Positions 6,955 through 34,111 of a DNA stretch of 34,111 nt are shown piece after piece. The translations under genes and the position numbers were made by a program. Numbering within the stretch: position 1 is the stretch's first letter; every line of letters begins with the position of its first letter. The stretch comes from Dimargaris cristalligena (lineage: Eukaryota). The stretch is taken from the NCBI GenBank assembly GCA_003614675.1, contig ML002397.1:1-34111 (forward strand), read 5' to 3'. The notes beneath the pieces were generated by a model. It saw only the letters and a list, made by a program, of their open reading frames with translations, made no database searches and was not told the origin of the DNA.

Positions 6955-8205
6955 ATGACCGTTCCCGAAGAAAAGCCCAGGGGTGCCTCCACTACTTCAA
7001 CCGACTCGGCTGCCCCCGTGGGGAAACCTCGTACATCCACTCTGAACCGCCTCCGGTCCTTGGCTGGTTGGTCCCAAGGCGATATGGACCGGTTGTTTCT
7101 GCTTTTTCGTAGCTACCCCGCGCCGGTACTCGACCGGTTAACCCGGTTTCTTGCCTCCGCTTCAGGGTCTGACAAAGTGCTAATGGTTAGTACGCATATA
7201 TTCTAATACCCGTTCGGCCAGTCTCTAACCCCCACCCTGGTATGGCACTGCTCGTTCACGTTGGACAATATCTCGGTTACTCCCAGAATCCTTTTTGTGT
7301 TTGTATTGGGGGTGATAAGGTGCTGGGAATATCCTAAAGATAGAGTGATGCTGGATGATTGTGTTGGTATAAATGAGAACTATTTTCCCCAATGTTGAGG
7401 ACAATAAACTGTAAATGATCAACTATTTGTCAGTCTATACACAGTCCAACTATTCGTCTTTGGCATTACTAACCTTTATTACTGGCCCTATTTAATTCAC
7501 TATTTATTTATCATTTGTACATTCACCTTCCTATTTTCTCACCACCCCTCCCAACCGCAGATCATCCAATATTTCTCCAAAATTGTCATTTGGTACGCCC
7601 TGCGCAAGGGTAATGGCGGCCTGGCAGACCGTGTGCGCAACCTGGCCAATCCCGTTTCCGACTACCGAATCCTTTCTCGGTTCACAGGTCTCATCCCCCT
7701 CGTCCACTACATGCGGGCCATCGAACTCAACCCCCCGCCTACGCGTTACCTCCACCAGTTAGCTCGCCTCGAAAACCTCTGCAATTTCGTCTACTATCCG
7801 CTGGAACATGCCTATTGGCTGGGCGCCCATAACATTATCCCGTCCACGCTGTTATCCCCCGCCAAAATCGATACCATTGGTGTATGGTCCTGCCGATTCT
7901 GGGCCGGCTACGTGGTCCTGCATTTCCTAACCCTGCGCGAAGAGCACCGGCTGCTCCAGTCCCGCAAAGTCGAAATCCTGGCCGATAAGCACGAATCTTC
8001 TCCCGCGGCCTTCCAGGCTAAACTCGAGCAGTGGCATCGGCAACACCGCGATTGGTGGGTCCAGCTGGTCATCAATACCGCCTATTTCCCTCTCACGATT
8101 CACTGGTCTAACCCGAAGTCGAAATTCCCCGATGTGGGGGTCGGCATTTGCGGAACCATTGCTGCCCTGGCCCAACTTTACAGTGGTTGGAAGGCCACTG
8201 TCTAA
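6955..8205 (+). CDS. PEX11: Peroxisomal biogenesis factor 11 (PEX11) family protein, 291 aa, 2 exons
   Basis: Exon 1 6955-7185, intron 7186-7560 (GTTAGT...TACTAAC...CAG, phase 0), exon 2 7561-8205. Join gives RFLASASGSDKVLMIIQYFSK; also YYPLEHAYWL, WSCRFWAGYV, NTAYFPLTIHWS, GICGTIAA, typical of the fungal PEX11 family. Confidence 0.82.
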
Positions 8206-12797: not shown

Positions 12798-12942
12798 TAT
12801 ATGAGAGAAGTTCATTCAGGCTGTATAACGAAAAATCCATTGGATGAGACCAAGATTACTGGTTAAAAGCTATTCTTACATATATTCACTCGTGCATGTA
12901 TTATGTAAACCCTTATACAGCTGGTTTGAATTCCACCCATAT
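12798..12942. mobile_element. MITE-like family copy 2 (~145 bp)
   Basis: TATATGAGAGAAGTTCATTCAGGCTGTATA ... ATACAGCTGGTTTGAATTCCACCCATAT imperfect TIRs; internal AAATCCATTGGAT and ATTACTGGTTAAAAGCT. Confidence 0.62.
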
Positions 12943-13653: not shown

Positions 13654-15063
13654 TAAAATAAGGCCTGTCATATATTTTTTACAGTGAAAATTACATCGGC
13701 CTTTGCAGTTTATAATAACTCTGCGGACCGCAGTCCACTTGGGTTATTGAGGCGTTGTCCATAATGGTATATGGTTCACTCGTTTACTACTTCCAGATCT
13801 CTGGCTGTATCACTTACCCACGTACCAAGCCACCAGTGGTACTATTCTACATATTATTCATTTGGGAGGTGAGGATGGGGGGTGCTGATAAATACCGGGA
13901 TGCTATTTATTTAAGGTGGAATGATTGCCTACGAGCAATCCGCCTGTTACTAAACCGGTTGAATCCCCAAGGGACTTTCTGGTGCCCATGCGAGTACTTT
14001 CGCAAATAATGACATACCAATAACGTATATTATGTATTAATGGATGTAAATATGAACCAGAGCCACATAAAATCTGGTATTAGGTTATTTAAATGGGGCG
14101 CGTATTGAAAGATACGGTGTAGAGATGTTATTGGCCGAAATCCGAGATACTGTATTTGCACATCTTAAATTGTAGCGGGGGCTCATGGTTTCATACAAAA
14201 AAAAAAGAGGAATGTCTTGAAACTATACACGCAGTGAAAACCCGACCATCCGAAGTTCAAACTCTATAACATATAGGTACAGTACTGGTTATGGCACAAG
14301 AGTAGCCTCGGATAAAAACATATGGTATTTAAAAACGGCCCCACCATGGCTGCTGGGAACCGATTGGCAACTGTTCCAACAAAACTGGCAATACGAGAGA
14401 GAGAGAGAGAGTATGTGTCTGCTGTGTTGGTAACATACTACGGTGGTGTGGAACCCTTTGATTATTTAGAGCGAGGCAAACGGATATCGGGGGAAGTTAG
14501 TTTATGTAAGGCCAAGCCAATTTTCCACAGAAATCTCGGCCATTTGTTTCTGGAAGTGAGTATACGGGGTCTTCCTAATCTTCAATGGTGTAGACCTGCC
14601 TTCCAATTTAAGGGCAAACGACTCATTCATACATCCATTTTCCACATATTCCATACGTATGGTAACAATGGTTTCACGGTGTTCGGTTTAGCCTCCTTTT
14701 ATATTTTATAGTGCAAGTCAACCCTGATACCCTCAGGCCTAGTTTAATATGCAATGCGCTCACCCTAAGTTTAGGAGCATGTTAATCCGGAGGAATATCC
14801 GCTCTACCCAACTATGGGCCATTTCGCTTGGGCCGAATATACGGTCTTCAACCGGGAAAAAATATATATCCCACGGAGAGGGCATGCGTAGCCTCCAACA
14901 AACCAACTCATTGTGCGACGTTTTAAGCGAGTGTTATGAGTCGCCAATATATATAAAGGACAGGTCTGCTATCTAAGGTTTGGCCTAATAATCGCTCTAA
15001 GCGTCAATATTTTATTGCCCTTTTTTTTTAATTGACCACCCCCCATTGACTTGATCCCTCATT

Positions 15064-15369
15064 ATGCATATCTCTCTGCTTACAACCTTCCTTCTTATGG
15101 CAACCCCCCTTGCCCTGGCCACTGGCTGTCAGTCTTCCCATCGTCAATGTGGCAGCCATGCTCACCTCCCGACTGGTGAATTACACACCAGCTCGCAGAG
15201 CATAGATACCCCAATGACCCCGACCGGTGGCACCCCCGATAAACAAGTTTCCAGGGAATATACTCAAACCACGGACACCGATGCCGATGAAGATATTAAT
15301 ACGTCGAATGAAGCAGACAATAACTACATCAAGTCGTTGGACTATACAGATGAGTGGTCCGATGAATAA
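15064..15369 (+). CDS. Small secreted acidic protein candidate, 101 aa (possibly truncated)
   Basis: TATATAAAG at ~14950; signal peptide MHISLLTTFLLMATPLALA; two Cys, His-rich segment, then Thr/Asp/Glu-rich tail. Confidence 0.6.
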   Translation: MHISLLTTFLLMATPLALATGCQSSHRQCGSHAHLPTGELHTSSQSIDTPMTPTGGTPDKQVSREYTQTTDTDADEDINTSNEADNNYIKSLDYTDEWSDE

Positions 15370-15493
15370 TACAATCTCTCTGTAATGAATCAATCGAGAT
15401 ACCAACCTTTGCAGCCAGGCCCCAACCCTTACAGCTCCGTAGCGCCCACACCCATTTATACTAAGGCCACTCAAAGTGGACTAGTTATTGCCG

Positions 15494-17896
15494 AGAGGAG
15501 TGTTAACTTATGACAAGCCTCCCAATATCAGAAGGGCCCCATCCTGATTGGTAGTTGTGTAATTAAAATTGCCTATCAAGGTGTAACATTGTTACTTAAG
15601 AGATGTATCCATACCATCTGATCTACTGTTGCCCTGCCCTTGGATTTCTTCAATCTCAAAAAATACTGCCAATATTATTACACTTTAATAAAATATTTTT
15701 TAATGGCACTTTAAATTATAGAAATTCTGTATAAGACAATTTGTTTTGTCATAGCCCTGGTTCACATTTGATTATGGATAACTATACTGAAACACATCTC
15801 CCAAAGTGGTATATGCTACTGTTGGCCCTCCTAATCTGACTTAACCTGGACTTAATGATTTTCCACCCTTATTAGGCCTGATAAGTGCCATACTAACCCT
15901 CCCATGGTTACCCCTGGTACTATAGGATCATCATTTATCATATAAACATTCTCCTTCCGGACCCCAGTGCTTCACACTAATCACCCAGCCTGCTAATCTG
16001 AAGACTCTCATGGGAACCAGAAGAGTCTTCTGGATATGAGGCCCATCTAGTCATCTATTTATCTATACCATAGTCTAGTAGTATCTCCCCTTGGGGTCTC
16101 CCTCTGGAGCTGCCCCACATATATATAACTGAGCCCTTGGGACTGGTTAGATTCTTTAGCTTATACTTACCCCCTAGTTTCCCACAATAAACCCTATATA
16201 CACTTACCCCTTCATACTGACCTGTAAGTGTGCCCACTGCAAATCCTTTACATAACCTCATTGCCTAGGCCTTTATTAGTTAGTACTGCACCCCATCCTA
16301 ATGCTAGTAGCACACTTGGCCAAGTCTAAGCCCTGCCTACTATTAGAAGCCTATCCCTGAGACTCTTAACAGACTAAGAGTAGTTAATTTGGGTGACAGC
16401 TATAACAGAGGTACTTTGGTAACATTCTGGAAGTCACTTGTAAAATTAATCACCTAGTCTTCTTCATTGATCTGAGAGTTATTCAAATGCTTCCAAAGTC
16501 TTTTAAACACTGTTGTAGTCCTTTTGGTATCCCTGTTACTTATTGGATTATCTAATCCACCTTAATCTGGCTGGCTTAGATGTCTAACTATATTAGACCT
16601 TATTATACCATATTAGCTTTACCATAGTTATACCTAGTACCATAGGATCATCTATTATTATATAACCTTTCCCCCACCCAGACTCTGCCTCTTTGCATTA
16701 ATCACTTAATTACTGATCCATTAGACTCTTCCAGTTAACCTCCAAGTTTTCTGGATACTAATGGCTGTCTGGTCATCCTATTTACCTATCCCCTAATCTT
16801 AGTAGTATCCTCCTCTTGGACCTCACTCTAGAGTTGCCACTATGTATATATAGCTAGGCCCCCTTTAGATAAGTTAGATTCCTCAGCTTATTATTCCCCC
16901 TATACTAATTAGTAAGGGTACCTCCTGCATATCCCTTGCATATCCCTCCCACTAAGCCTTTATTAGTTAGTACTATACCCTGTACCTGATACTAGTAACC
17001 TACTTAGTTAAGCTTAAGCCCCACTTACTATTAGAAGCCTATCCTCAGGACTCTTAATGGACTAAGATAGGTTAATATAGGATTATCTGGCCTACCACAA
17101 CTAGACCCCTTACTTTAGCTACTATTTGAATAAAAGAACTTGTAATTCTATAGGAACTTTTTCTATAGTAATAACTAGTGCCATGGACATGGTATAATTA
17201 ATTATCTGATTATCACTTGAAGATTATCAACATTGAATTTTCACCATTTCTCTGACTATTCCTTTGGTTTATACCATTGTATTACAAGTACCAGGCGGCT
17301 GCCATCCAGTGTTATCCCCATATTTAACTACACCCTTAGGCATCAGTATGTTGTTTCTCAATCAGTTCTGCCTACTTTCCTAATAAACTCCACTACACTT
17401 GTCCTGTTTATTACTCTACCCTTAGGTTTTTATGTACTGGTATCCCCTCCTTGCTTTTTATCAATAAATCCCAGCTAAGGTAACCCCTGATAATGTATTC
17501 CTAGGAAGACTACCCCATGGGCTATAGTACAGGGCTAAAATGGTTGACCAAGGTGACAGGAGAAATCTATATTAATTGGCCCTAGTTAACATGGCTAACC
17601 AGATATCAGAAGTTCTTTGGGGTGTAATGTTTATAAAAGTCTTAATGTCAAATAATAAGTATCAAATAGAATAGAAAGGAAGCCTCCAAGATCCATGGAG
17701 GGGAGTGGGGGATGAGGTACAAGTCCATTACAAGCCCCAGGCTGGATATCATAGTTGCCCCATAGGCTATTCCTATTGGCCGGTATAGAATATCACATAT
17801 ATAGAAGAATCTACCACTAGATAACTCAGTGCCTACTAAGGATGGTCAACATGACTGTAGCAGGGGAAACTATGAGAGGACTAGTGGGATCTACTG
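15494..17896. repeat. CpG-depleted, TpA-rich decayed repeat/TE block containing a diverged ~500-bp direct duplication
   Basis: Only three CpG found by eye in ~2.4 kb; copies ~15870-16388 and ~16591-17076 share ATAGGATCATC (15922/16642), GCCTTTATTAGTTAGTACT (16269/16956) and TACTATTAGAAGCCTATCC (16338/17026). Confidence 0.75.
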
Positions 17897-18313
17897 CGGT
17901 TTTAAACTTCATTTTAGCCACCTGGGCTATATATTTAGGTGCAGTCCGCAAATGAAATGAAATTAATTTGAGGTTGGAATGGTCTGTGATGCATTCTTTC
18001 AAATCTTCCCAGATAATTGAACCTGTTCGACTATTCCAATGTATTCCATTACTCCCTTGCTTTGCAAGGTATAGGGGGTTTCTTTTTATACATGAACTCC
18101 ATAAAAATAAATACCCGCAGTAATATATTGCGTTTCCATGCTGCAGCTTTTAAGCCCCCTTAACCCACCGGCCGCAGCACGGCAGGGTCGGTCAGGTGCG
18201 GTTATCCTATACCCATTCTTCAGCTCTTTTAACCTCCTCTTCGACTTCCCCTCCTCTGAATTTCTTTAAGACACTAACTGAATCCGAGGAACACTACTTG
18301 AGCGCTGTGAGAA

Positions 18314-21300
18314 ATGACGTCCACCGCCCCGCTACCCGAATGTCTAGCCCGATTCCGACGCCTATTCCAGCAGCTCAATACCACTTACACCTTCTACGCC
18401 TTTAAGGTGGGTGACTCGCTTGTGCCCATTGCCAAACTTCAGCCGAGTTTGGAATCAGCACTACAGGATGCACTGACCTTGGATGACTGGACGGCATTGG
18501 CCGGCATCGACGATTCCATTCAACTACATCTGCTGAACCTCATCGACTGTGAGCCCGCTTCGAGTGACGAACTCTATGTATTACCCGCCCAAGGGGGGCC
18601 CTCAGCCCAAACGCCGAAGGCCGTCGAGCCCGTCGTCTCTGGGCTCAGGCAGGTAGTGGCGGTTCAACTGACTTTAGCCAATGACTCTGGTCCCGTGAAT
18701 CGGCCGGCTAAGCGGCCCAGGTCCCGGAAAAACGGGAACTCCCAACCCCCTAAATCTATGGCCGACTTAACCCGCACTATCTTTCTACGGATGGCCCATT
18801 TTGAATTGCGCCTGGCAGAGCTGCAGAGTAAATACGCCGATTATGTAAGTCACCTGGGTTAGTACTCGGCCGGGGGTGGCCAAATTACTATTTATCATTG
18901 GGCGAATACCCTTCAGACCAAGAATTTTTCGTATGTTCTTAATTTTTACACACAATCACCTCTTTTACCTTTTCGACTAGACCCGAACTAACTTTTTGAT
19001 CCAGGGCAGGGCCGAGCGGCTTGTTTTCCCTCGCTGTATCCGTGTCATTTGAATTATCTCACCCCAGACTAATGATTTGGGTGACATATTAAAACAATTG
19101 GCCCGTTTTCATTTCGCCGAAATTTATACCCACTGGGATGCCCTACAAGCGATTATCAACCCGCCACAGTCCCTGATAATTCAAACCCCACCCACAATAA
19201 TCGATGAATCCGATTCAATGGACGACATTATCAATGAACTTCAGCAGCAATCGTTTTACGCTGATCAGATAGTGCCTCGGGGACACAAGACCCTAAGTCC
19301 TCGGCCTGCATTGTTCAGTGACCATCGGCCCCGGCTAGATGCCCGGGTGTACGAAGCACTCAAATCGGTCCAGGGTATTACCAACTTATACACCCACCAA
19401 TGTGAAGCCATTGAAGGGGTATTGAATGGTGGCCACATCATTATTTCGACGTCAACGGCTAGCGGTAAATCCATTGTCTACCAGCTCCCTATACTAAACA
19501 CTCTTCTAGCTGATCCCGATGCCTGCGCTCTCTGCGTGTTTCCCACCAAGGCCTTGTCGCAGGACCAGATCCAATCATTCCGGAATTTAATTAGTGCCTG
19601 TGCGGGGCTGACCGACATTCAAATCGGCGTCTACGACGGTGATACCCCCTACGAGGGCTCGGTCCGCAATACTATCCGCCAAACGTCCCGGGTTATCGTC
19701 ACCAACCCCGACATGCTCCATATGGCCATCCTGCCCCATCATAGTCGCTGGCAGCGGCTACTGCGCCATGTTCGATACATCGTTTTGGATGAGCTACACA
19801 CGTACCACGGTTCCTTCGGAGCTAACGTTGGCTTTATTCTTCGCCGTCTTCGTCGGTTGTGCGCCCAGCTAGGCAATACCCAAGTGCAGTTCATTGCCTG
19901 CAGCGCCACCTTGGCCCAGCCCATAGCCCATATGGAGGAACTATGTGGATTCGACTCACCCCCTTCCGCTGCAGCGATTGCCCATCCCCGGGTGCTCTCC
20001 ATTGACCAAGACGGTTCCCCCTGCGGATCCCGTGACTATATCCTATGGAACCCCCGGGGCGAAACGCAGCTATCAGACACCGAACAAATCATAGCCTATC
20101 TTATGCGAAAGGAGGTCAAATCCATGGTATTCTGTAAAAGTCGCCGGGTGTGCGAACTCCTGTTCCGCAAGACCCTCGATACTTTGAAAAAATACCCCAG
20201 CGATGCCAGCCTAGCCAACAAAGTGTTTGCCTATCGCGGGGGGGTACTGGCCGGAGGAACGTCGGCGAATCGAAGGTAAGCTATTTCGGGGTGAACTCAG
20301 TATGGTCATTACCACAAATGCCCTCGAATTGGGGATCAACGTGGGGAGTTTGGATGCGGTGGTCATGGTTGGGGCCCCTTCGAGTTTCGCATCGTTCCGG
20401 CAGCAGGCCGGCCGGGCCGGTCGGCGCAACCAAGGGGCTCTGGGCCTGGTGGTGTTAGACCCCGATGACCCACGTGACCAGCGCTTTGTCCACCATCCCG
20501 AGTACTTGCTGAACGCCCCCGTCAAGGACGAGTGGGAGCTGGACCTAACCGACCCCGGCATTAAAGTGCCCCATTTACAATGCGCTGCCTACGAAGCGAA
20601 ACTTCAAGACGAAACGGATACCCCTTATTTCGGGACTGATATGGAGAAACTGTGCGTCCAACATTTGCTGTCCGATGTGGACCAGGTAAGCATACATTTG
20701 CAACCGAGCAACTGCTACCGCACCAGAGACTTATGTAGTCGGGGAGGTTCGACTCACCAGTGTGACCATTTCCATGGTCGATTGTCCTGAGGACCCTTGC
20801 AACCGTTAATTTTAGCATTTACTAGATCTAATAATGCGGACGTTTGCCCGGCATCTGTACCGAACTATCCAATTAGAGCTTTATCTGTCACCCAACGTAC
20901 CGGCCCTATCCTGCGGCCTTAATTGACATCCGCGGGCCTCGCGAAGAGCAGTTCGGGGTAATTGACGTCAGTTCCTCGACTGACCGAGTACTGGAGGAAC
21001 TCGAAGCGTCGCGGGCCCAGTTTTCGCTCTACGAAGGCGGAATTTTCATTCACCAGGCGAAATTTTACCTCATGACCCGGGTCATTCCGGATAAACAGGC
21101 GGCATTTGTCAAACCGAGTCATTTGGCCTGGTATTCGACTCCCCATTCTTCCACTTTTATCGAAATTAAAAAGACGCTAAAATCGCTGGACCGGTCTGGT
21201 GATGGATTGGCCTTTGGTAGTGGACAGGTCGTAGGTAAGTGTGCGTCAGGGATAAAAACATGGAAGTCAAATTCCAGACATTTGGGACAATGGTTTGCCT

Positions 21301-22425
21301 TTCGCAGCGTCCGCTTGCATTCGGCCGTGGGCCTGTCGGTTAGGATCGATTCTGTAGTATTACGTCATCGATGGTCACGCTCGTCGCAATCCTATAGTCC
21401 AAATGCTAACTTATTACTCTCAACCTAACGTTGTCACTTTAAATTTTAAACATATATATATATATATTACATCATTGACACTGGGTCCTACTCTAGTCAC
21501 TGTCCGGACCACTGGGTTTTCCTGTATCGACTTCCATAAGGGTCAGGTAATCAATACAGTCGAAAAATGCTCCCCTGATATAGCCCGTGAGGCCTATGCC
21601 ATTTGGATTAATCTCCCCCCAAGAGTGTATCAACAGACGCATCAGGGTCCTTCACCATGGCTGGACTCCCTGCATGCCCTTTACCACCTCTTCTCCCGGA
21701 TAGCGCCGCGTTACTTGGTATTCAGTAACCATTCGTGCCAATACGAGATGATGCAGGTCGATAATAATTCCAGCCCTCCGCTAAGGTAAATTCCTCGAAT
21801 ATCCCTTATGGACCCTGTATTTCCCGAAACGATATTCCCACTTGTAAAATGCCCAATAATTACTCGAACATGAACGGTAGTGGGTTGGTTCCGGAAACCT
21901 GTAAAACAATATTACATTGGGTAAGTTCTTCTATATCTCCCACACCACTGACCTACCCACTCAACGAAAGTTTGACATTCCATCGTACACAGGTTACTTT
22001 GGTATTGCGGAACGCGGGCGATTCTCGGTCTCCTGGAACCACTGCGAGCAAAGTTCGGCGAAATACTGCTAGATTGTCTCCAACAGCTTGACCATTGCTC
22101 CTGTAAGCAGGGCTGTGACCAATGTAAGAAAACATTTTTGAGTTGCGACATTCAGTGAGAGGGGGGCCAACGTACTCCATATTCTGTGGAGGATTGATTC
22201 GATGCAGTCAGCTGCGTTTCCTTGGTTTCTACCTCTCACACAAAGTATGGTTCTAATGTTACATTATTGGCTGGCGCCTCACCGTTACCCTCCCTATGTC
22301 GTTGTGGTGGTGGTGGTTGCTGTATAGGCATACATAGGAAGGATTGCAAATTCCCACAGCAGCCAACATCCAAACCCGGTGCGGCAAGACTAGCCCGCAT
22401 TCTCCAACAAATGACGCTTTTGTAA
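18314..22425 (+). CDS. HRQ1: Hrq1 (RecQ4-like) DEAH-box helicase with C-terminal DUF1998 Zn motif; 6 exons; +1 frameshift at 20238-20244
   Basis: Exons 18314-18844, 19068-20685, 20877-21234, 21497-21785, 21993-22123, 22328-22425, all GT..AG with matching phases. Motifs LYTHQ, STSTASGKS, PTKALSQDQ, TNPDMLH, DELH, CSAT, AYRGG(Y), TNALELGI, QQAGRAGRR, HLQCAAYE, LYEGGIFIHQ, CSCKQGCDQC..C..SKPGA. Confidence 0.93.
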
Positions 22426-23256
22426 TACTCCGGCATGCAGGTACAGCTGAGAAAACCGCCTTGCACTATTGAATACGACCTATTCGTTTGTTGGGTCGGG
22501 ATTTTCCAGGTTGTTGACAGCAAAGCCCCTGTCCCTTTTCCACACTCGAGTGTTTTCCACAATCTTAAATGATTGGATTAGACTACCCCCATATATATTT
22601 TTGGGTGTCAATAATGTATCAAGAGATTGTCCATGGGATTTTTATACCTGACGGCGTATACACTAATATATATTTAACGTATCACGTTGCACAGTGTATT
22701 ATTCATCACTTGAGATTATGTGTATGTTCACAAATAGAGTCGATTACTGTGGTCCATCCCCGAGAAATTAATTAAAAATAAGCAGCGTCAGCTAATCAGA
22801 AACACCTTTATTTATTATTTAGAGTAGGATAGTATTTTCTTTTTTGGCGTATTTGTGGCATTTTAAAATGGAACATCGATTAATTTTAACTGATTTAATT
22901 GGTCTAGAGTACACTCAGGGTATTATACAGTATCGACTGTGGGGGACTGTTAAGTGGAGTGTAGATGAAAGGGTACCAGGGCGGTGGACTGAGACGATGT
23001 TACGGAATATAGCTTTGTATTTTACCACCAGGGGACTAGAAGTTTCCTCTTACCTTAACACATATACATAGATAGAGGGCGGGAGAGAGAGAGAGAGAGG
23101 GCGAAGATGCTGGAATAGGGTTTTTTCTGTTTTTAATATATATATCTATATCGGTTAGACATACGTGGCAGTTACATTGCGAGTGTCATAACCGAATGGT
23201 GTCAGCGAAATCTGGGCGAATACACCTTGGTAGTGTCGGCGCTTTTTACATAACCC

Positions 23257-23338
23257 CAAACTCCGCTCACATGAAATCCCACTTAGGCTCTTTTGGTATT
23301 TGGAAACCTTTTCCAATCCATTTGAGTAGCGGAGTTTG
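23257..23338. repeat. ~80-nt inverted repeat / hairpin
   Basis: CAAACTCCGCT (23257-23267) / AGCGGAGTTTG (23328-23338) perfect 11-bp stem, with an inner TTGGAAA..TTTCCAA hairpin. Confidence 0.6.
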
Positions 23339-25425
23339 AAACTTTTGAATGTTACTACTTATAGAGGGGTAGCTTCCCCAATTGGCTAAAGGGAGAGGGT
23401 TTTTAGAAGAAATTATTGCTAGTTCGACGGAATAAAGGAATTAATGAAGCCCAATTGATTCCCAGCCACTGTCCCAACCAGTGGAGAAAGGCAGGTAAAT
23501 TTGTTTGGGAGAAGGAGGGAAATGGCGGGAGGGGAGAGGATGGGGAGGGAGCTAACCACGGTTCGCCGACTCATACATGTGTCAAACACCCAATACTCGC
23601 ATAACGCACTTCAGGCAGTCGAGTACTAAAGCCCAGGGGGTGACGGGGGTGGGAAGGAGAAAAGGCCAATACCTATAGGAAGGCATTCGAATATTAGCAA
23701 TTCTCTGACTATATCCACTGGGAGACGCTGATTGCCTTATTGTTTATATTAGGCCTTGGGTGGTTTTGCATTACTGTCCACCTAGCGCAGTGATACCGCC
23801 GACCCGGCCAGATTAGGATATATTAGCCACCTGGAGACCCATTGGTGTGCGTATGGGGGAGGGGGGAAGGGTTAGCGTGTAGGAATTTCGACAGCCCCTA
23901 GGTTAAAAATCGGGTGTATCGAGGGCGGGATGGGGAGGAGAGGCGGTAATGGAGGGGGGAATAGTTACAGTCTAGTCGTGGGCTGCGGAACGAGTTCACC
24001 GGGTTGTTGAGACTATTTTTGTTACAACCGCCAAAACTGCACAGTAAACTATGAGTAAGGTCAATTTAAGCAAACCCTTTAGCATGACCTTGCCCGTAGA
24101 CTGCGGCACTGCGAAGTAGCTGGTCCGAAATGTTTTATAAAGGCGGGATAGGAAAGCCTCCGTTCCACCCGTCACAATCAGGGGCCCAGCGGCTTAAGCG
24201 TGGGTCCGGGGGACGGGGTTTACTTGAGCGGCTGAACGACAGGTGGGTTTGCCGCAGCCTATGAGGGTTTAGAGCATCCCTTTGCGAGGGTTCGTGCGAG
24301 GACCGCCGGCCTTGGCCGTTGCCCCCCAATCTATCCCCCAAACCCTTCGCACCCTCTTTGCACAGCTGTGGGGAGAAAAAGGGCAAGCCACCCAGCAGCA
24401 CCTACTTCTCCTTTCAGGCCTTCGATACTCTAAGCCACTTACTCATTGGGGCCCTGTGGAATTCGGTCTGTTTCATGTCAATTCAGAGCCGGAAATGGGG
24501 GGAGAGGGTGACATTGACCTCACCATTCGGTAGCGCTGGGGCACTTCACCAAACAGGGACCCCAAAGCCAATTTGAAGGGTGACGGTGCGACCATTTCAT
24601 TTATTTATCAGTCACACTTTGATCACACCGCTAACTACTCCGGTACATATTAAAGTTATGGCTTATGTATATATATATATACCTAGATATATATATAAAT
24701 CAACCCAACATCACCATGGCGGTTTAGAGAAATGGCGGCTATTAAAGGGATTAGTAAGTCGCTCGCCAATGTGACAAAAATATACGAATAGAAAATAGCA
24801 ATTCGGAAATCGCCTGTCCATTTGTGGCCGGGATCCTCCACTTCCATGGACAATGGTGTGGCTATAGAGAATGTCATGGGGCTGGGTTGATTAAAGATGT
24901 AGTAAGGGAGAACAATGTGAAAAAGGCAGATATATCAGCGATGTGCCTTGGGAGCCCATGGCTGAGTAGCCAGCGCCATTTCTCAATCGAAGGAATTGAG
25001 TGAGTGAGTGAGTGGGAGGAGAAGGGGGGAGGGGGTGGAGCGGGGAAGAAATGGTGAAAGGGGGGATCGCCGCCTCGGATTACCCCAAAAAAGGCACCAG
25101 GTTGATGAATCAGTTGAGCCGGTTTTCTTGACCTGGAATAGGCCCAAGGCGGCCTAGGCTTCCGGGGGTAGTCGAAGCGGTTTAGGAAAGAATCCATCGG
25201 CGAGATTACTGCTTCCCCCTCAGTCCGCCCCTTCAACCACTACATTCAGATATTCACCCCCTCATGGTCCGTTCTATACTTTTCCATCACTCATAATCCC
25301 CGGATCCGTGCGTAGTCCGCCGCCCACACTACCGGCGTGAAGTGTTTACCCAACACTGTCACTATCATGAATTCCTAAACATTCACGACTTTGATGCGTT
25401 TCAAGGCTATTAGTATTAGATAATA

Positions 25426-25451
25426 CAATTATATTATATTATATTATATTA
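25426..25451. repeat. (ATATT)n microsatellite
   Basis: ATTATATTATATTATATTATATTA read directly. Confidence 0.85.
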
Positions 25452-26029
25452 CATATATAATTTATAAAAGTTTATCCCGCGAGGATTCGGTGCTCGTTAT
25501 TCCTGATCGATTCTGCGTTGAGCAGTTAGACTGCAGGGGGAGGGGATCCAACCTATGACGGCTGTCTCAGGAAGAGGTAGGATTTTTAATCAGCAGCGAC
25601 TGCGGGATATAGGGGCCATATGTTCCCATGATCATGTGGAATATAACCCCCGGGTTTGGCCTGTGCCTTGGCTATGGGGTGCCTTTCTAAATCACCTAGG
25701 GGCCAAAGTGGCCGCTCAGTCCTGTCCCGCCTTAATTTCCGAGAAGCTGAACTGTCGGTGCGCAGCAACCCTTCCCAAACTCCCATCAGCATCCCCAGGC
25801 TGTCTATCCCAAAGCGACGGGCGAAAGAAAGACCATGAGTAATAGCGCTTAGCTACGAATACACCAGCTGATACCGTCGGCCCCGTCTTGTTCTGGACAT
25901 TGGTGGTCCAGACGGCAACCCCTACTATTATTCCTTTCTAAATAGCACTACTATTAATTCCTTCTCTCACTCCCAGCGCTTCACCAACAAGGCACCCCAA
26001 TTCTTTATTCAGGGCTAGCGGAGATTGCC

Positions 26030-26370
26030 ACCTTCCCCTGACGGTTCCAAGGCGTGGTTTAGGCTAGCTTCTGGAACCCGTGGCCCCTTATTTCGCCTGG
26101 CCCCTCGCATCTCCAGCGATTGTCTCAACAAAAAGAGCCAGCAGCAATCTCTTCCCCGTTGGGAAAAATGTGAAGGGCGAATTCATTTCGGTAGAGTAGA
26201 ATTTCCTCCTAGTGGACCGCAGCCTGAAAAAAATAAGGGAAAGCCCCTGCCACGCCGGGGCCAAACGTCTCGTCTTCCCAGCACCCCAGCTTCCTCTCTT
26301 CTCGGTGAGTGAATGGAAAGTATGAGCATGGAGTAACCTCCCCCCCCACAACATTCAGTATATATAGCAG
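26030..26370 (+). promoter_or_regulatory. Putative stress-responsive promoter of the small HSP gene
   Basis: TATATATA at 26359-26366; CCCCT (STRE-like) at 26035, 26084, 26101, 26244; TTCnnGAA partial HSE at 26069-26076. CCCCT is common in this C-rich DNA. Confidence 0.4.
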
Positions 26371-26532
26371 GCCCCTTTTCCCTGCTATCCAACTCAAACT
26401 CAACTCCCATCGCTTCAAAGCATTTGGCATTTTTCCCTATCTCCATTTTTCTGATACCCATTTCGCATTTAAACCCCACTACTATTGCTACTCGCCCCCC
26501 CTTGCTTCTTTCATCCACCACACTTCTCCACC

Positions 26533-27159
26533 ATGTCGGGCTTCTTCACTGACCGTTTCTACCAGAACACCTTCTTCCGCGAGACCCACCAGCACTCCTA
26601 CCCGGGGGCCAACCTGACTCAGCCCGAATACCAAGGTACCACGCAGCGGGCCGTGGGCTTCGGCGGCACCTCCACTGAAGTCACCACCTCCCCGGCCAGC
26701 CACAGCGGCAGCTACCTCGCCCAGTTCAACTCGCAGTTCGACTCCAACCGCCACCACTTCGTACCGGTCACCGTTACCGACAACTACGCCGAGTACAGCC
26801 GCTCCTCCGACCGGGCTATCCTCCCTGCGGAACACAGCCCCTTGGAAGAGGTCAACTCCGACACCCAGTATAAAGAGGACGGCATATACCTCACCATGCA
26901 CTGGCCCACCACCCAGCCCAAACGGGTGGTCCACCAAGCGGGTACTAACGAGGTCCAACTGGTCGCCACGGGCGAAGAGCGCTCGAAAATGAAGCAGGTC
27001 GTCATCCGCGAACAGGTTGAGCAGGACCTGCTGCACCGTTCCTTCAAGGTCCCCGACGGTTACGACACCTCCAAGATGCGGGTCGAATACAACGCCGGCG
27101 TTCTCAAGGCCCATATCCCCAAGAAGCGCAACCAGATGCTCTCAATGTTTTATTCATAA
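26533..27159 (+). CDS. Small heat-shock protein (HSP20/alpha-crystallin domain), 208 aa, intronless
   Basis: CCACCATG start at 26533; strong C-ending codon bias; C-terminal HRSFKVPDGYDTSKMRVEYNAGVLKAHIPK matches the ACD signature F.R.F.LP..VD...I.A.Y.NGVL.V.IPK; Phe-rich N-terminus. Confidence 0.8.
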   Translation: MSGFFTDRFYQNTFFRETHQHSYPGANLTQPEYQGTTQRAVGFGGTSTEVTTSPASHSGSYLAQFNSQFDSNRHHFVPVTVTDNYAEYSRSSDRAILPAEHSPLEEVNSDTQYKEDGIYLTMHWPTTQPKRVVHQAGTNEVQLVATGEERSKMKQVVIREQVEQDLLHRSFKVPDGYDTSKMRVEYNAGVLKAHIPKKRNQMLSMFYS

Positions 27160-30100
27160 GCACCTTTTCCCCTTCTAATCGGTTTGCACCCAGCGTGGCG
27201 GTAAGACGTTTAGCCTAAAGTTTTATTTATTGATTGCCGTTGCTTATTATATTAATTCTTGCCATTTTTGGTGCGGTGTTTTTTGTTTTTGTGTTGTTGT
27301 AATATGCTACTACTGTTCTTTTTTCCTTCGAATATTTTACCCTACTTTTCCCCTTTCCTTGTCTATCGAAAATGCCCTACAGCCCAGTTCGTTTCGGCGA
27401 CCCTGTTCCTATCCTTATCCTTCAAGCACATCGATATGTAAACTATATTTATTACATTGCTATCCAAGTTGCTCTGGGGGTCTCCCTTATTTGTAACTAA
27501 ATAAACTCATTTTCTATTCAAACTATGGTTCACCGTTAGGGAAGGTCAGGAAAGGAACGGGCCTAATAATTCGGTCCCCCGGGTAAATTGGCTATATTCA
27601 GTATTCTTGTACGTAGGGACTATACCAGACCAGGATTGGAAATTCCTAACTGGGATTGACCGTGCTTGTAAGTAAACCATACGAGGCGGAAAAACACAAC
27701 ACACCATTTGTTGAAGGGGGAAACTATACTCTTCGCCTATATAATATTTACATTGGGAGGAGGGGGTCCGTGAGCGTGAAGCTAGGTTCCCCTAATGCCC
27801 ACAACGTGAATATTCTAACTGCATTTAAGAAATATTGGTAAGGAGGGACAATACCAACCCCTAAGGCCAAGCGATAAAGATATTGGTCTTGGCGGCGGAA
27901 AAACTGCCATAATTCCTCGGCAAACGCGGCGGAGGCTTAACCTTTTGGCGATTGGTAGCCCATTTGTCTTTATCAAGCCATCGTGATTTCCACTTTGCAT
28001 GAAAGCAGTTACGGTGCCGAATTGGCCACTTCTACCGAGATTGACCCCTCCACCCCGGAAACCATTTTCCCGGGGACCACAGTACCCTTATTTACCATCT
28101 ATTAGTAAATCGGCGTCACGGAATATTCACCGCAATTGGGAATAGGCGGGATAATCATAATGTGACCAGTGTCGCTGCCTCGGCATGTGTCTGTTTAGCG
28201 AGGGTAGGTTGGGCCACCACCACTCCCTCCCCCACTATTGTCTGGTGCCCCTCCCCCCCCCCAAAAAAAAGAGAAAATATTGGGCCTTTGTGGAAAAAAG
28301 GGAGATTGCCAGGGTATGGTGACCTCACGATAAGGACTACTAATTTGGTGTAAGTCTGTGATGCGCATACTTTTTTTGGAGGGGGGAGGGGGATATAGTG
28401 TTATGTCGGTGGAAGCAAGCGATCCTATACTATCTTGGCTAATTTGCCTGATTTTCTGTAATTTCATAGGTCACTTACATTTTATCCAGAAAGCGCCAGT
28501 GCATACTCAGTATGCTGGGGGGAGAGGGAAAGAACGAGAGTGCCATGAAATTGATTTTAACCGCCACCATATCCTCCAACACCGTCGAGGGTCGGTGTTA
28601 TTAATAGGTTTGCACTTAATGATATAAATTTATATTAAAAGGATCTCCAAAAACCATTGGTGAACCCTGTGGTTCCATTTGGATGAATCAGTGTAGAATG
28701 AAGACACAGAGCTGAGTCTATATTTAGTCTGCATAATAAGTTCTATTTTATTGTCCTTATTTAAAGCCATTGGAATAACAATGCGCCATCGCTTATTTTA
28801 TTGCTTATGGTCATCTGGCTGATGATAATGGAGAGGGCTGTTTTTCAGGATTGAAGGGGAGGGGTGTTTTTAGGCAACCACCCGGCATTAGAGAACCGCT
28901 ATTGTACAAACTCTATCAAGAGCAATAGGAAGTCCGAGCTTGAATAGGGCATCAGTATGTAACGGGGGCCCCTGTTGAGTAACCCGTGCAGCCCAACGGC
29001 TAAAAATGCAGGCCCGCTGGAAATATCAACTGAAGATCCGGCTATCCATCAGGGTATGGCAATAGTAAGTAGCAGTAGCCCACCCTTTATGGCCATATTT
29101 ATTTTACTAGCACGACTAAACCATGTATAACCCCTTTAATTCTTACAGAAGTCATCCTGCAATACTAGGCCTGTTATGTCACCTTTTACAGCCCTGCTAA
29201 GGGATTGACTTACCTTCCGAACATCCCAAGTCCCTTCCAAAAGCAATAGTCCAGGGCTGTCGGTTATCAGCCGAGACCCAGGCCGGGGCTTCTCTCCCGG
29301 TCGCTCGTCTTACTGCATTTAGGGGGAGGGATGTTCCACATTTTGAACTCAAGTATCTTTGTGAAGCCTCCCCCACGGAAAGCCATGGCGCACCTATCTT
29401 TATTGGAGTACCATGTCGATCCAAAAAAGGCAACGGGATGCTAACCTGGTGCTCTTGACCCAAAAAGCCGCTGCTCGGGAGCCAATGGCCCCAGAAAAGG
29501 GGACTTGGTTTGGCTTACCTCATACCAACCCAAACCGAACATTATCTATCCCACCTTGTTTAATTATTTAACCCCCATTGGCCTGTACGATCCATACCCC
29601 ATAAGGCCACGTATATCAATGTTCATGGAATACCGATTGTCCAAGGCTGGATAATTGACTAGGCCAGATTTATCGCTAAAAATCATTTTCTATCCAATTA
29701 TATCGGTGAAAGACAACGCCAATGCTATATAAAAATAAAAGTATAACGAGGCCATTAGGAGGGAAAGTCGATGATTACCTTGCTCGACTTGGATAATGAG
29801 CGCCCCTTAGGAAATACCGGTAAATGACCCCCTCCATCCGTGAACAAGGCGGAGTTTTCTTAATGACGAAGGTATAGGTGGCGAAGGTGTATATCAGCCG
29901 CTTCGGTACTGGCTTCCGCTTTTGTTGGGAAAGAGTGGGAAGGTGGGTTGCTTCTTCAACCAAATAGCAATACATTTCCCTTGGTTATCAGCGGGTGGTG
30001 GCATTATATAGAGTGATAAAGACCAGAGGCAATGAAAGCGGCAAATAAAATAAAGCAGTTTAGGATGGTTAGGCGTAAATAAGGATACGGGGGTTGCATT

Positions 30101-30549
30101 GTTTTTCAGCGAATTATTCGTCATTCCACGGAAAGCCGGTATAAACCTTGAGGCTTTTAATAATATATCAGGCGGCTGATGCTCTAATTAGGAAGGTGGT
30201 GAGCAGAATGAGATGGGTAGGAAAAAGGAGGGGGAGGGGAAAAAGCTGTACCTTGTTAAAGATCCCTTTTCGAAAATCCCCCGACTGGATACTGCGCCAA
30301 AAAAAATATAGGTGAATCCATTTCTGGGTATTTAAACATTGGGCTGGGGCACCCTGAGATTCCATAAACCAAGCAACTCACCAACCATCCCAGTTGTACT
30401 TAGATTTGTGGCCTCCTTTACTACCCTTTATTCCCCTTTACTGACTATATCACATATTTGTAAAGTCAACGACTCTACACACCATACCCCATCCTGCTCT
30501 TTGCTAAACCTCGACTTCATATTACGCTACAAGTAAATATTTATTCAAA

Positions 30550-31506
30550 ATGTTCGACGACCGTTCCTTTTTCTCATCGTCTTTTTCAAGTAACCAAAAT
30601 GCAGTCTCCAACATCCAATTCGGCAGGTTTTTCGACCCGGTCCCCACCCCTTTCGTACCGCCAAGCATGAACGACTTTTTTGCTCCCCAGACACGGAGTA
30701 CAGCGATACCCTTCCGGGAATTTCACAGCCGGACCGAAACCAGTTGGACCGATTTGGAAGGCCAGCACTATGACTACCGCCGCGAGGAGTCGCTGACATC
30801 GAGTAACGATTTCGGCCCCCACTGGCGTTACCGTGGCCGGGTGGTCGAATCCCCCGATCGTCTAGGTCCGGAAGGCGGCTATATTCCCCCCCTTTCTATG
30901 CACCCGGGCGGTTCTCCAATCCGTGCGACTAGGGCCACCTCGGCAGCTGCCCCTCCTCCTGTCCAACAGACCCGTACCTATATAGTACCCACTAACATCA
31001 AGCTAGACCTTGTGGTCATAATGCCCCCGACGGCCACCCCTCCCCAGCAGCCCCCCGCCCAGCCGCCCACGAATAATCCAGCGGAGCCTAGCTACCAACC
31101 GGCCCCCGCCCAGCCGCCCACGAATAATCCAGCGGAGCCTAGCTACCAGCCGGCCCCACCGCAGGCGGCAGGTTGCAGCACCGGGTTTGTCACCCCACCC
31201 CCTTCAAACGATAACGCCTCCGTCGAAACACTGCCCGATCCGCACTTGGATATTAATATGGAAATCACGGATGCTGGTAACTTCCAGGTGATTGAGATTA
31301 CCTGGACGGGGCAAGGCGTTATTGCCGAACCGGCGTATAACCACGAGCAGCGGAAGTTGTCCTTTCTCCACGAACCCGAGGCGGGGAGTGGTCAAATTAA
31401 GACTAGATTCACCATTGATGCTCCCGTCCCACGCAGCACCGCATATACCCGAATTGTGCCTGGGCAAGGCCATAACAGATGGCTCCTGATATGCACCAAG
31501 ACTTAG
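30550..31506 (+). CDS. 318-aa Pro-rich hypothetical protein, possibly with a divergent HSP20/CS-like C-terminal domain
   Basis: Long GC-rich ORF with CAAAATG start; Phe/Ser-rich N-terminus, Pro/Gln-rich middle, ~90-aa beta-rich C-terminus. Confidence 0.75.
   Translation: MFDDRSFFSSSFSSNQNAVSNIQFGRFFDPVPTPFVPPSMNDFFAPQTRSTAIPFREFHSRTETSWTDLEGQHYDYRREESLTSSNDFGPHWRYRGRVVESPDRLGPEGGYIPPLSMHPGGSPIRATRATSAAAPPPVQQTRTYIVPTNIKLDLVVIMPPTATPPQQPPAQPPTNNPAEPSYQPAPAQPPTNNPAEPSYQPAPPQAAGCSTGFVTPPPSNDNASVETLPDPHLDINMEITDAGNFQVIEITWTGQGVIAEPAYNHEQRKLSFLHEPEAGSGQIKTRFTIDAPVPRSTAYTRIVPGQGHNRWLLICTKT
31052..31157 (+). repeat. In-frame 51-bp tandem duplication (PAQPPTNNPAEPSYQPA x2)
   Basis: Units 31052-31102 and 31103-31153 differ at one synonymous base (CAA/CAG). 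Confidence 0.95.
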
Positions 31507-31779
31507 CTGGACTAGCCATCTATGGAAACGCGGCCCTTCCCCTCCTCTGCCCGGCATTATATCACTTTATTTATATAGCTAGATTGCTACTATTTAAACC
31601 CCATCGGGCCATGCTCGTTAAATATAACCCCCCCCCCCCTCCAGTCCCCGTGAAACAGCCGCCCACTTATATATATATCCATTATATTAAGCCGTCCATG
31701 CCACATACTCATATTGCCTATAGTGCACACCACTACTATAACTATCCAGCTATCTCTTTAACCTGTCAAATAATAAATA

Positions 31780-31820
31780 TATATGGGAGAAATTCCTCCC
31801 AACAACTGTATATGGTTTTC
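31780..31820. mobile_element. Partial terminus of the MITE-like family
   Basis: TATATGGGAGAAATTCCTCCCAACAACTGTATA resembles the family TIR (reverse complement of 32368-32396: TATATGGGTGAAATTCTGCCCAGCTGTATA). Confidence 0.45.
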
Positions 31821-32248
31821 AGTTAAATCTGAATGTGGAAATTGGTAGGATATATTTTACTCTTTAGGATTCTAGGCTGATTAATAGGAGTGTTGTTAGG
31901 CCGGTGATACTAAGCATATCCTTTTTATACATTCTATCGTGTGGTAATATAGCGGGCTCTCAACTCGGGTTATGCTAATATCACATCAAAAAAAAGTACA
32001 AAAGTATCCTAATGACTATAGCAGGGACTTCGCATGTTACTGCTACTAAAACGTAGCCTAATTACCTGTAACTACTGCAACCGCCGGGCCAGGCCAACCA
32101 CTATGTGCCCAGGACATCACCGGTCCCGACCAATGGAAGCACTCAACCGAGTCCCCTTCTACTGCAGCCACCCCTCCTAAATAGGCAGCGAACAACTAGC
32201 TACATCCCTAATCTGCCATTACAAGAGATATGGGGTACGAAAAAAAAT

Positions 32249-32396
32249 AATACGGGAGAGGTTCAACCAAATTATAGAGCAATAAATCCACTGGATAAGG
32301 TAAAAATATTTCTGGCAAAAAATGAACCCCCCCCCCACATGTTTTCCCATATGTATACCAAATCCCTATACAGCTGGGCAGAATTTCACCCATATA
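32249..32396. mobile_element. MITE-like family copy 4 (~148 bp)
   Basis: TACGGGAGAGGTTCAACC ... ATACAGCTGGGCAGAATTTCACCCATATA; internal AAATCCACTGGAT matches copy 2 AAATCCATTGGAT. Confidence 0.62.
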
Positions 32397-32799
32397 TCTA
32401 TATAGTTTCCCACTTGGCATGATATCTATTTAAGCCCTGCTCAACCCTTTCACTACATCTATCTATCTATATTATAAAGCTGCTATTTTTCTTAAAAATG
32501 TATGGGGCTAACTCCTAGGTGTAACTCCTTTTTATTAGCATTTCCGGTCACCTGATCCCAAACTATCCTCAGTGTTTAATTGATTGGAACTGCTGCCCAA
32601 TTACTATTACTATTATTACCTATATCTATCCATATACTAAAGGAGGGTTAATACTAAACTGACTACAGTACCCAGTACTAACTAAATATATAGACCAGTA
32701 CCCATATATCCAGGGTAGAACCACCCTGGAGGATAAGAACCTGGCTTTGCAGCTAGAACCAACTCAGTATCATTTATACATAGTCTGCTATTGTATCTA

Positions 32800-33032
32800 T
32801 ACTTCCAGGCTACTAGCAATTTCATGTTTAAGCTGCCTTTACCATGACAATTAATAAGTCACAGGGCCAGACATTCTCCAGGGTAGTAGTATTCCTTAAT
32901 CAAAATATATTTTCTTATGGCCAACAATATGTGGCCCTTTCTAGAGTGGCTAACCCCTCCAATCTCTATGTGGCAACTCCAAATAGATGTAGGACTACCA
33001 GGAATGTGGTATATGGTAAGGCACTACAGTGA
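32800..33032 (+). mobile_element. Decayed Helitron PIF1-family helicase C-terminal fragment
   Basis: In-frame Y*QFHV*AAFTMTINKSQGQTFSRVVVFL...FSYGQQYVALSRV...TRNVVY matches the Helitron consensus RRQFPVR.AFAMTINKSQGQ..VG..L...VFSHGQLYVALSRV...T.NVVY; upstream part carries stops. Confidence 0.88.
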
Positions 33033-33302
33033 GGTGATGTAGAGTATAGGGTGTGGTAATAAAGTGAAAACATTCTATTTTTCTGTTAAAAACTGACCCT
33101 TATTTTATAACTATATAGAGGATACTTAAAAAATCACAGCACTTCCTACAGAGAGCACACCTGTACCATAAGTTGAAATGAAGGATCAGAGGGGAGTGTA
33201 CTCCCCAGATCTATTGCTTGTACTTTATATGAAGACATTATTATAACTTAAGCCAACCCATCTATCCATCTGGATCACTCTAAACCATGAAAGAGATAGG
33301 TG

Positions 33303-33869
33303 GTGCATTGACCCCCCTCCATGGTACCCATCAGGTATACAGGCAACCAATGCCTATAACTGCTCCAGGATAGGTCCTTTTTCAAGGCTCTAATGGTGAG
33401 AACCTTCTTTAGGGGAGTAAGGATTTATGTAGCCAAGGCCTGGGCCAAGGAGGCATTACTGCACCTAGGACATAATCAATTTATCTGTATTGAAGTGACT
33501 ATAGCACTATTGGTCAAGTTCAACAAACACCTCCAGTGAGCACTGAGTGGCTTTTGAAATTTCAATAACATCCAGAGTACCAATCTGGACAAAAGGTTGG
33601 ACAGCATTATAGAGGAGGTCCTAGCTGACCAGGTCCAACTTACAGTTATGCAAAACACCCCAGGATATAACAGTAACTGGCAGGAAACACCAAGGACACC
33701 ACCACCACCACCAAAGCACCATCTGGAGAGGAGTCTACACCCTAAGGAAATGGCCCAAGTCACATCCCAAGGATCAAGTTATGTGATGTCCAAGTCCAAG
33801 TGTAAATGTGAGAGGCAGTGGAAGGAAATCATGGAATTATGGGCCAAGATAGAGTCATATAAGCAATAG
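33303..33869 (+). pseudogene. Decayed ORF of unknown family inside the CpG-free block (TE gene or Helitron cargo)
   Basis: The frame of ORF 33597-33869 extends ~100 codons upstream with only four stops (TGA, TAA, TGA, TGA), each one C->T away from a sense codon; no CpG in the region. Confidence 0.5.
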
Positions 33870-34111
33870 GGAAGAGCATAGAGGTAGTGAAAAGATTTAG
33901 TGAGTTAGTTGTAGTGAGTATCAATAAACTGGTAGTGAACTCTACCCTTAATATTGCTAAAGTTGTATTGGCTATCCATAGAAGGCATTTGTGGTGAACT
34001 TACCACATTTTTACCTACTTTTATTTTTATCTATTTTTCGCACTTATTGGAAGTATGCCCCTGACGAGTGAATGAGCCCCTGCCCCTGCCCCTGATGAGT
34101 ATGGTCATTTT

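Follow-up and report, generated by a model that had tools for sequence, protein, structure and literature searches.

CpG-depleted repeat islands among CpG-normal genes in a contig of Dimargaris cristalligena

Contig ML002397.1 of Dimargaris cristalligena (assembly GCA_003614675.1), analysed here over its whole length of 34,111 nucleotides and referred to as the window, ends in a Helitron-like stretch of about 1.5 kb that lacks the dinucleotide CpG altogether. How can a repeat lose every CpG when the genes around it keep theirs? A sequence-only reading of the window attributed the loss to a genome defence resembling repeat-induced point mutation (RIP), that is to a C-to-T hypermutation acting on CpA as well as on CpG and leaving CG-to-TA double transitions. 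This dual reading is disfavoured by the mutation spectrum described below. The CpG-free stretches are probably old, high-copy transposon debris, shaped by CpG methylation confined to repeats and by long-term deamination of 5-methylcytosine (5mC). A CpG-specific active mutator is unlikely, and the islands do not point to a new genome-defence mechanism.

CpG-depleted repeat islands

The absence of CpG was confirmed by counting. The 1493-bp run between the CpGs at 32545/6 and 34039/40 contains 0 CpG where 60.3 are expected from base composition (Poisson P 6.8e-27), and 200 mononucleotide shuffles of the window gave CpG-free runs of at most 252 bp. The CpG-poor zone to which this run belongs, hereafter block 2, starts at 32255 and has 1 CpG (32545) in 1784 bp. 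A second and larger zone, block 1 (15493-17780), absent from the sequence-only reading, contains 2 CpG against 83.3 expected (P 2.3e-33). Beyond the two blocks, no further CpG-free run above 300 bp occurs in the window. The observed/expected ratio (o/e) of CpG is 0.01-0.02 in the blocks (0.01 in block 2), as compared with 0.78 in low-GC non-repeat control DNA of similar GC content, and amounts to 0.80 in the window outside both blocks (1341 CpG). The contrast drawn earlier between the block and its 'CpG-rich' neighbours therefore holds, although the level of these neighbours is CpG-normal. Only three CpGs survive across the 4.07 kb of both blocks, in the contexts CCGG, GCGG and CCGG.

Copy number was assessed with contigs of four public runs matched to 15400-34111 at a likeness of at least 80%. 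Three runs (X1, X3 and X4) come from the window's organism and one (X6) is labelled as another organism. Between 2612 and 2930 contig pieces were matched per run in X1, X3 and X4, nearly all of them on 15400-17271 and 32248-34111. Summed contig depth was 1.7e3 to 1.6e5 in the bins of 32248-34111, compared with about 97-180 in single-copy bins (X3, X4), and 7e3 to 5.5e4 in the bins of 15400-17271. The two CpG-poor blocks are the only high-copy dispersed repeats in the examined 15400-34111, so that the proposed association of CpG loss with repeats was borne out. The depletion is real and highly non-random, and it belongs to the repeat islands, not to the Helitron as such. Outside the islands, depth was raised in one bin only, 24136-24759; this bin might have served as a control repeat that contains CpG and was dropped because of the (TA)n microsatellite in it.

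Contigs from two studies, namely X3 record 13 (17172-28215), X4 record 20 (17038-31081) and X4 record 21 (31119-32487), run across the boundaries between repeat and unique DNA. Because these contigs span both kinds of DNA, an assembly artefact was ruled out and the islands are real features of the genome. Both appear to be intergenic: judging from their sequence, one carries a 72-codon helicase relic, and in the other a unit of about 500-570 bp occurs as a decayed duplicate (Table 1).

Mutation spectrum of the repeat copies and of the helicase relic

The duplicate in block 1 records how its CpGs were lost. Its two copies, A and A', are 70.3% identical over 478 aligned columns (66% in the BLAST high-scoring segment pair) and differ by 98 transitions and 44 transversions, a transition/transversion ratio (ts/tv) of 2.2, or 1.8 without CA/TG pairs. 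Among double differences at adjacent sites, CA versus TG ranks first, with 10 cases for 2.4 expected (P 2e-4); AC/GT and AT/GC, its mirror classes, give 3 cases together. This excess indicates that ancestral CpGs were deaminated on opposite strands and were lost independently in each copy. It implies an ancestor with some 15-20 CpGs (o/e about 1), all of them lost after the duplication. We estimate that at most about 10% of the former CpGs per copy went on to become TA, since the ancestral o/e would otherwise exceed 1.4 (unscripted estimate). With a transition distance (Kimura two-parameter) of 0.11 per lineage, a CpG rate excess of about 10.5-12 fold is enough to leave no survivor among 30-40 site-copies, and this excess lies within the methyl-CpG decay rates of mammals. 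An excess of this size thus accounts for total loss without a special mutator.

Outside CpG the spectrum of the repeats is ordinary. The C/T differences of the duplicate fall on 23 of 117 YpA, 16 of 91 YpT, 8 of 59 YpC and 1 of 12 YpG sites, and no CpA preference was detected among them (Fisher P 0.52, chi-square P 0.60) in this small sample from one duplicate. Transitions and transversions between genomic copies and the window number 235 and 78 in X1 (ts/tv 3.0), 283 and 84 in X3 (3.4), and 321 and 88 in X4 (3.7), to be compared with the 10 transitions and 4 transversions among the single-copy strain differences listed for X4 (n=14). The directions of change were nearly equal, as in X1, with 125 changes from C/G in the window to T/A and 110 from T/A to C/G. 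Contexts of repeat and single-copy variants come from the 40 variant places listed out of 526. The 26 listed repeat-block variants comprise 21 transitions, of which 8 are in CpA, 6 in CpT and 6 in CpC context and 1 is CpG-related. Neither the duplicate nor the listed variants thus show an excess of CpA-to-TpA changes, an outcome that the sequence-only reading had named beforehand as refuting its proposal.

Base composition is in line with these counts. Low-GC non-repeat DNA of the window has the same GC content (0.397) as the blocks (0.39 and 0.396). In block 2, the o/e of CpA (1.13), TpG (1.08) and TpA (1.15) exceed the control values (0.96, 0.95 and 1.06, respectively), and raised CpA and TpG are what a change of CpG to TpG or CpA predicts; together with the CA/TG discordances of the duplicate, they show former CpGs as TpG or CpA. 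Block 1 is mixed, with CA at 0.83, TG at 1.10 and TA at 1.30, and CT and AG raised even more. TpA o/e rises up to 1.63 at 16501-17000, where (CpA+TpG)/(ApC+GpT) is 0.79. The classical RIP indices, calculated in 500-bp windows, were dropped as a discriminator: ordinary parts of the window give block-like values of TpA/ApT and of the second index (1.34 with 0.81 at 2001-2500; 1.78 with 0.89 at 26501-27000). Overall, none of the hallmarks of RIP (transition excess, CpA preference, AT enrichment) is shown by the duplicate, the genomic copies or the composition, and the proposed C-to-T action on CpA as well as CpG was not borne out.

The description of block 2 as a Helitron holds for a short part of it only, where 72 codons from the C-terminal end of a Helitron-type Pif1 helicase survive as a relic; elsewhere in the block no Helitron homology is detectable. 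Frame 1 from 32547 reads ...PGY*QFHV*AAFTMTINKSQGQTF...FSYGQQYVALSRV and includes the codons TAC, TAG, TAA, ACC and TAT; after the in-frame stop (...PGY*QFHV*) it continues AAFTMTINKSQGQTFSRVVVFLNQNIFSYGQQYVALSRV. The motif of the relic, ..QF.V..F.MTINKSQGQTF...FS.GQ.YVALSRV, contains the TINKSQGQT and GQLYVALSR-type motifs of the C-terminal part of Pif1 SF1B helicases. Two in-frame stops stand just upstream of an open piece of 65-66 codons (32832-33032), whose nearest protein relatives, Pif1/Helitron helicases, are 55-60% identical. A profile built from 42 relatives matches the window with an E-value of 5.6e-29 (hmmsearch), only over profile positions 252-323 of 325, and tblastn matches 32817-33026. 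The Pfam matches of the relic (Herpes_Helicase, UvrD_C_2) are weak.

Upstream of 32814, no helicase homology was detected when the 42-relative profile was run against all six frames of 31501-34111, stops being translated as X, and neither a Rep (HUH) domain nor the upstream helicase part was found in these frames. The remaining ~1.5 kb of block 2 has no recognisable coding content, and canonical Helitron ends (5'-TC and 3'-CTRR with a hairpin) were not recognised by eye. The relic resembles a Helitron in its C-terminal Pif1-type motifs, in its multiple genomic copies and in its relatives, 13 of 42 of which carry Helitron_like_N (PF14214; manual count). It differs in that the window copy is a fragment devoid of the Rep domain, the upstream helicase and recognised canonical ends.

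The double-transition argument rested on Arg codons read as TAC, TAG and TAA and supposed to derive from CGN. The three codons are as read. A conserved Arg is found only at TAC, where 40 of 42 relatives have this residue and which is the sole firm candidate for a CGC to TAC change; the TAG position is variable (R 17, L 13 and V 9 of 42), as is the TAA position (R 16, K 10 and A 7 of 42). The readings of Ala as ACC and of His as TAT were upheld, at residues conserved in 36 and 42 of the 42 relatives, respectively. Among 28 columns conserved in at least 75% of the relatives, the window retains 23. The five changed columns amount to four C-to-T/G-to-A steps and two transversions: two steps at the conserved Arg, GCC to ACC (G>A in TpG context) at the Ala, CAT to TAT (C>T in CpA context) at the His, and transversions at a Pro conserved in 41 of 42 relatives (CCT to CAT, giving His) and at a Leu conserved in 40 of 42 (CTA to CAA, giving Gln). 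The relic frame has 11 stops in 164 codons, which we take to be about the expectation for non-coding DNA of 60% A+T. No close paralogue of the relic was found in the protein collection (best identity 60% in one search and about 58-63% in another), and no intermediate Cys, His, Trp or Gln was readable there at the former Arg. Since conserved residues also took transversions, with one firm double transition, the relic reflects general decay rather than a directed signature.

Host, neighbouring genes and structure of the islands

That the host is an early-diverging fungus, as had been supposed, is supported by its BRL1 protein. The closest named homologues are from Tieghemiomyces parasiticus (50%), Dimargaris xerosporica (44%), D. 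verticillata (43%) and Dispira parvispora (42%), all of the order Dimargaritales (Kickxellomycotina, Zoopagomycota); remoter fungi match the conserved domain only. With the host in Dimargaritales, ordinary Pezizomycotina RIP is not the explanation.

Table 1. Features of the window (contig ML002397.1, positions 1 to 34,111)
Feature	Position	Strand	Basis and remarks
Block 1, second CpG-poor repeat island	15493..17780	.	2 CpG (15958, 17296) in 2288 bp; without recognisable coding content
Copy A, repeat unit of ~500-570 bp with many genomic copies	15870..16388	+	BLAST, alignment; loose ends ~15825/15846 and 16398 in many contigs
Copy A', same ~500-570 bp unit as copy A	16591..17076	+	BLAST, alignment; loose ends 17067/17075
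Block 2, CpG-poor repeat island	32255..34038	.	CpG positions, o/e 0.01, contig depth; includes CpG-free run 32546-34038
36-bp motif common to many contigs	32360..32395	.	Loose ends on both sides: 32359/32360 in 12-38 contigs, 32395 in 27-33
TAC (Tyr) at conserved Arg	32811..32813	+	Arg in 40/42 relatives; sole firm CGC to TAC candidate
Relic, C-terminal 72 codons of Helitron-type Pif1 helicase	32814..33023	+	Profile match, tblastn, weak Pfam matches
Start of very abundant repeat	33990..34038	.	Palindrome TGTGGT..ACCACA, then T-rich 16-bp tandem 34007-34038
Brr6/Brl1 protein	2498-3790	-	Pfam
Y_phosphatase2 protein	5380-5763		Pfam
PEX11	7408-8205		Pfam
HRQ1 helicase	19053-20790, possibly on to 21428		Pfam; last open reading frame 20877-21428 without Pfam match
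HSP20 protein	26473-27159		Pfam

Short stretches similar to the 36-bp motif of block 2 are found at 12907-12942 and 31773-31819. At the very abundant repeat that follows the helicase region, contig depth reaches 2e5 to 6e5 (34007-34023). Contig joints, which rest on matching sides of 21-29 letters, connect other repeat sequence to its start at 33989-33992 (32395>33989, 32397>33990, 16020>33990 and 16898>33992). The end of the 36-bp motif (32395) is joined to ~33990 in two or three contigs each of X1, X3 and X4, with sides of 21-24 letters. The segment 32396-33989, which includes the helicase relic, may accordingly be a nested insertion within another repeat. Inverted repeats in block 1 and in 32396-33989 are weak ones only. 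A 23-nt pair at 32440-32462 and 33878-33900 (83% complementary, 1415 nt apart) brackets the relic and may represent the terminal inverted repeats of a composite element.

Open reading frames (ORFs) of at least 90 residues are absent from block 1. The CpG-free block contains a stop-free frame of 103 codons with a proline-rich middle (33558-33869, plus strand) and, on the opposite strand, a frame of 100 codons at 33476-33778. Neither ORF 33558-33869 nor ORF 15055-15369 has a Pfam match. A CpG-rich 51-bp tandem repeat (31052-31157; 2.1 copies, 98% matches) lies within the 332-codon ORF 30508-31506 and encodes a duplicated proline/glutamine-rich segment.

Coverage by X1 is very uneven, with depths anywhere between 0 and about 4100 over single-copy DNA (17896-20391, 28504-32247), unlike the flat profiles of X3 and X4. 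At position 28730, contigs of X1, X3 and X4 have G and the window has T, a window-specific base or an assembly error. Just outside block 1, at 17863-17864, the window has GG and X4 has AA, a tandem double transition between strains. X6, the run labelled as another organism, contains a 1924-nt contig (record 25, depth 134.8) that is ~84% like the block 1 unit at 16134-16387, with 40 differences in 254 nt from the window repeat; in X6, the unique DNA of the window has a depth of just 3-6. These data hint at a mixed culture or at another organism with a related repeat family.

Explanations for the CpG loss and known systems

The preferred explanation, methylation of repeats followed by deamination, would proceed as follows. 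A maintenance system of the DNMT1/UHRF1 kind would methylate the CpGs of repeats, and not those of genes. The 5mC would then deaminate spontaneously, CpG becoming TpG or CpA at least some ten times as fast as other transitions occur, until no CpG is left, and non-CpG sites would decay by the ordinary substitution spectrum of the genome. An occasional TA at a former CG would have arisen later through a second hit of the ordinary kind, at the background rate of transitions in an old relic. Confinement of the depletion to repeats, next to CpG-normal DNA, is what this model predicts, and we infer the methylation and its enzymes from the sequence pattern. Related hosts offer some precedent: supplementary file 1 of PMC10538959 records DNMT1 and UHRF1, together with a class II zf-4CXXC_R1 protein, in two Kickxellales (Coemansia reversa and Linderina pennispora) and marks 5mC 'Y' for Linderina. 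Our literature search found nothing on 5mC, RIP or transposon control in Dimargaritales or on 5mC with transposable elements in Kickxellomycotina, and gene-presence tables only for Zoopagomycota as a whole.

Several points weigh against methylation and slow decay. Loss is total, with 0 CpG where 60 and 2 where 83 are expected; this would fit an active process too, and it exceeds the extent of CpG depletion familiar from fungal transposable elements. Contig pieces at least 95% alike to the window copy are numerous (291+720 of 2659 in X1), and a CpG would be created by only 1 of the 26 listed repeat-block variants; source elements that were already CpG-poor may thus have passed on part of the depletion. 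In block 1, CT/AG and TA are raised above CA/TG and there is no clean balance between lost CpG and gained TpG/CpA. The 5mC and the DNMT of the host are themselves inferred. Moreover, Smittium mucronatum of the same subphylum is marked ND for DNMT1 in supplementary file 1 of PMC10538959, and no row for Dimargaritales was found in the accessible part of that table.

The totality of the loss also bears on an active, repeat-directed and CpG-specific hypermutation, RIP-like or similar to methylation induced premeiotically (MIP), in which a DNMT-like enzyme would deaminate or methylate every CpG of duplicated DNA before meiosis, with rapid and complete loss. Such a process, analogous to the TpCpG process of Pucciniomycotina without the requirement for a 5' T, is unlikely. 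Besides the saturation in both blocks, it could account for an X4 contig (record 18, depth 140, 3 differences in 225 nt) that has CA where the window has TG at 16511-16512: if the two are orthologous, opposite strands of one ancestral CpG were hit in strains that otherwise differ at 21 of 14042 positions. X4 contigs of single-copy depth also show 6 differences in 1845 bp of repeat against those 21 in record 20, an excess that is not significant (P 0.06). The TG/CA case comes from a single short contig within a repeat, a setting in which gene conversion, graph chimeras or confusion of paralogues is likely, and the 10-12 fold CpG excess already explains saturation given the 30% divergence of the duplicate. 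The specific claim that Dimargaritales have an active homology- or repeat-directed mutator erasing every CpG of repeats, fast enough to produce TG/CA at 16511-16512 between strains ~0.15% apart in unique DNA, is in our judgement quite unlikely; if true, this CpG eraser would be a CpG-specific analogue of RIP outside Dikarya. We give an equally low likelihood to an inherited state, in which the families were CpG-free before amplification through intrinsic composition, CpG decay of source copies elsewhere or a CpG-poor donor, without any host process at the locus. The 1011 of 2659 X1 pieces close to the window copy, the near absence of CpG-creating variants and the high depth of the related repeat in X6 would be expected of it. 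The duplicate, however, lost its 15-20 CpGs independently after duplication, CpG-poor DNA reaches the lower-copy flanks of the units (15493-15825, 17076-17780), and CpG-decayed source copies would still require the same CpG-specific process upstream. Very improbable is the RIP-like hypermutation of both CpG and CpA put forward by the sequence-only reading, with its CG-to-TA double transitions in repeats. The TAC, ACC and TAT codons at conserved Arg, Ala and His, the locally raised TpA of the blocks and a host outside Pezizomycotina speak for it. They are set against only four C>T/G>A steps beside two transversions at 28 conserved codons, two further 'Arg' stops at variable positions, the lack of CpA preference in the duplicate and the listed variants, ordinary ts/tv values (single-copy 10:4), a GC content not below control with CpA/TpG of block 2 above it, RIP index values shared with ordinary DNA, and room for few ancestral CpGs as TA. 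In addition, in the accessible text of a kingdom-wide k-mer screen, RIP-like signatures are reported in Ascomycota only (PMC12543289).

The clean juxtaposition of CpG-free repeats and CpG-normal genes at one locus is indirect evidence of transposon CpG methylation in this mycoparasite lineage, which would extend the known fungal repeat-methylation pattern to another early-diverging order, Dimargaritales. The CpG o/e of repeats could also serve as a cheap, sequence-only predictor of which Zoopagomycota retain 5mC.

Among known systems, RIP of the Neurospora type is RID-dependent and consists overwhelmingly of C-to-T/G-to-A changes, classically CpA to TpA, with marked AT enrichment and depleted CpA/TpG. 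The window repeats resemble those of Neurospora and other Pezizomycotina in having C-to-T/G-to-A changes, in-frame stops and both copies of a duplicate affected. They differ in the lack of CpA preference and of a GC drop and in an ordinary ts/tv; the exhausted target is CpG, not CpA, and the host is outside Ascomycota. The TpCpG hypermutation of transposons described in Pucciniomycotina (Horns et al. 2012, PMC3318451) is likewise a non-ascomycete, repeat-associated and CpG-centred C-to-T process. In the window, by contrast, CpGs are gone in every 5' context, so that the TpCpG restriction does not apply, and the pattern is compatible with slow decay, whereas the Pucciniomycotina system is described as hypermutation. 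The closest parallel is the decay of transposable elements in fungi with DNMT1-class enzymes, for which a CpG-type signature in transposons (Amselem et al. 2015, PMC4352252) and repeat-confined CpG methylation and decay in basidiomycetes and Tuber (reviewed in PMC7862722) are described. Depletion is complete here and partial there, Dimargaritales (Zoopagomycota) are outside what those papers cover, and methylation is presumed here. The likeness lies in a CpG-centred C-to-T loss that is restricted to transposons, leaves genes untouched and brings no strong AT enrichment.

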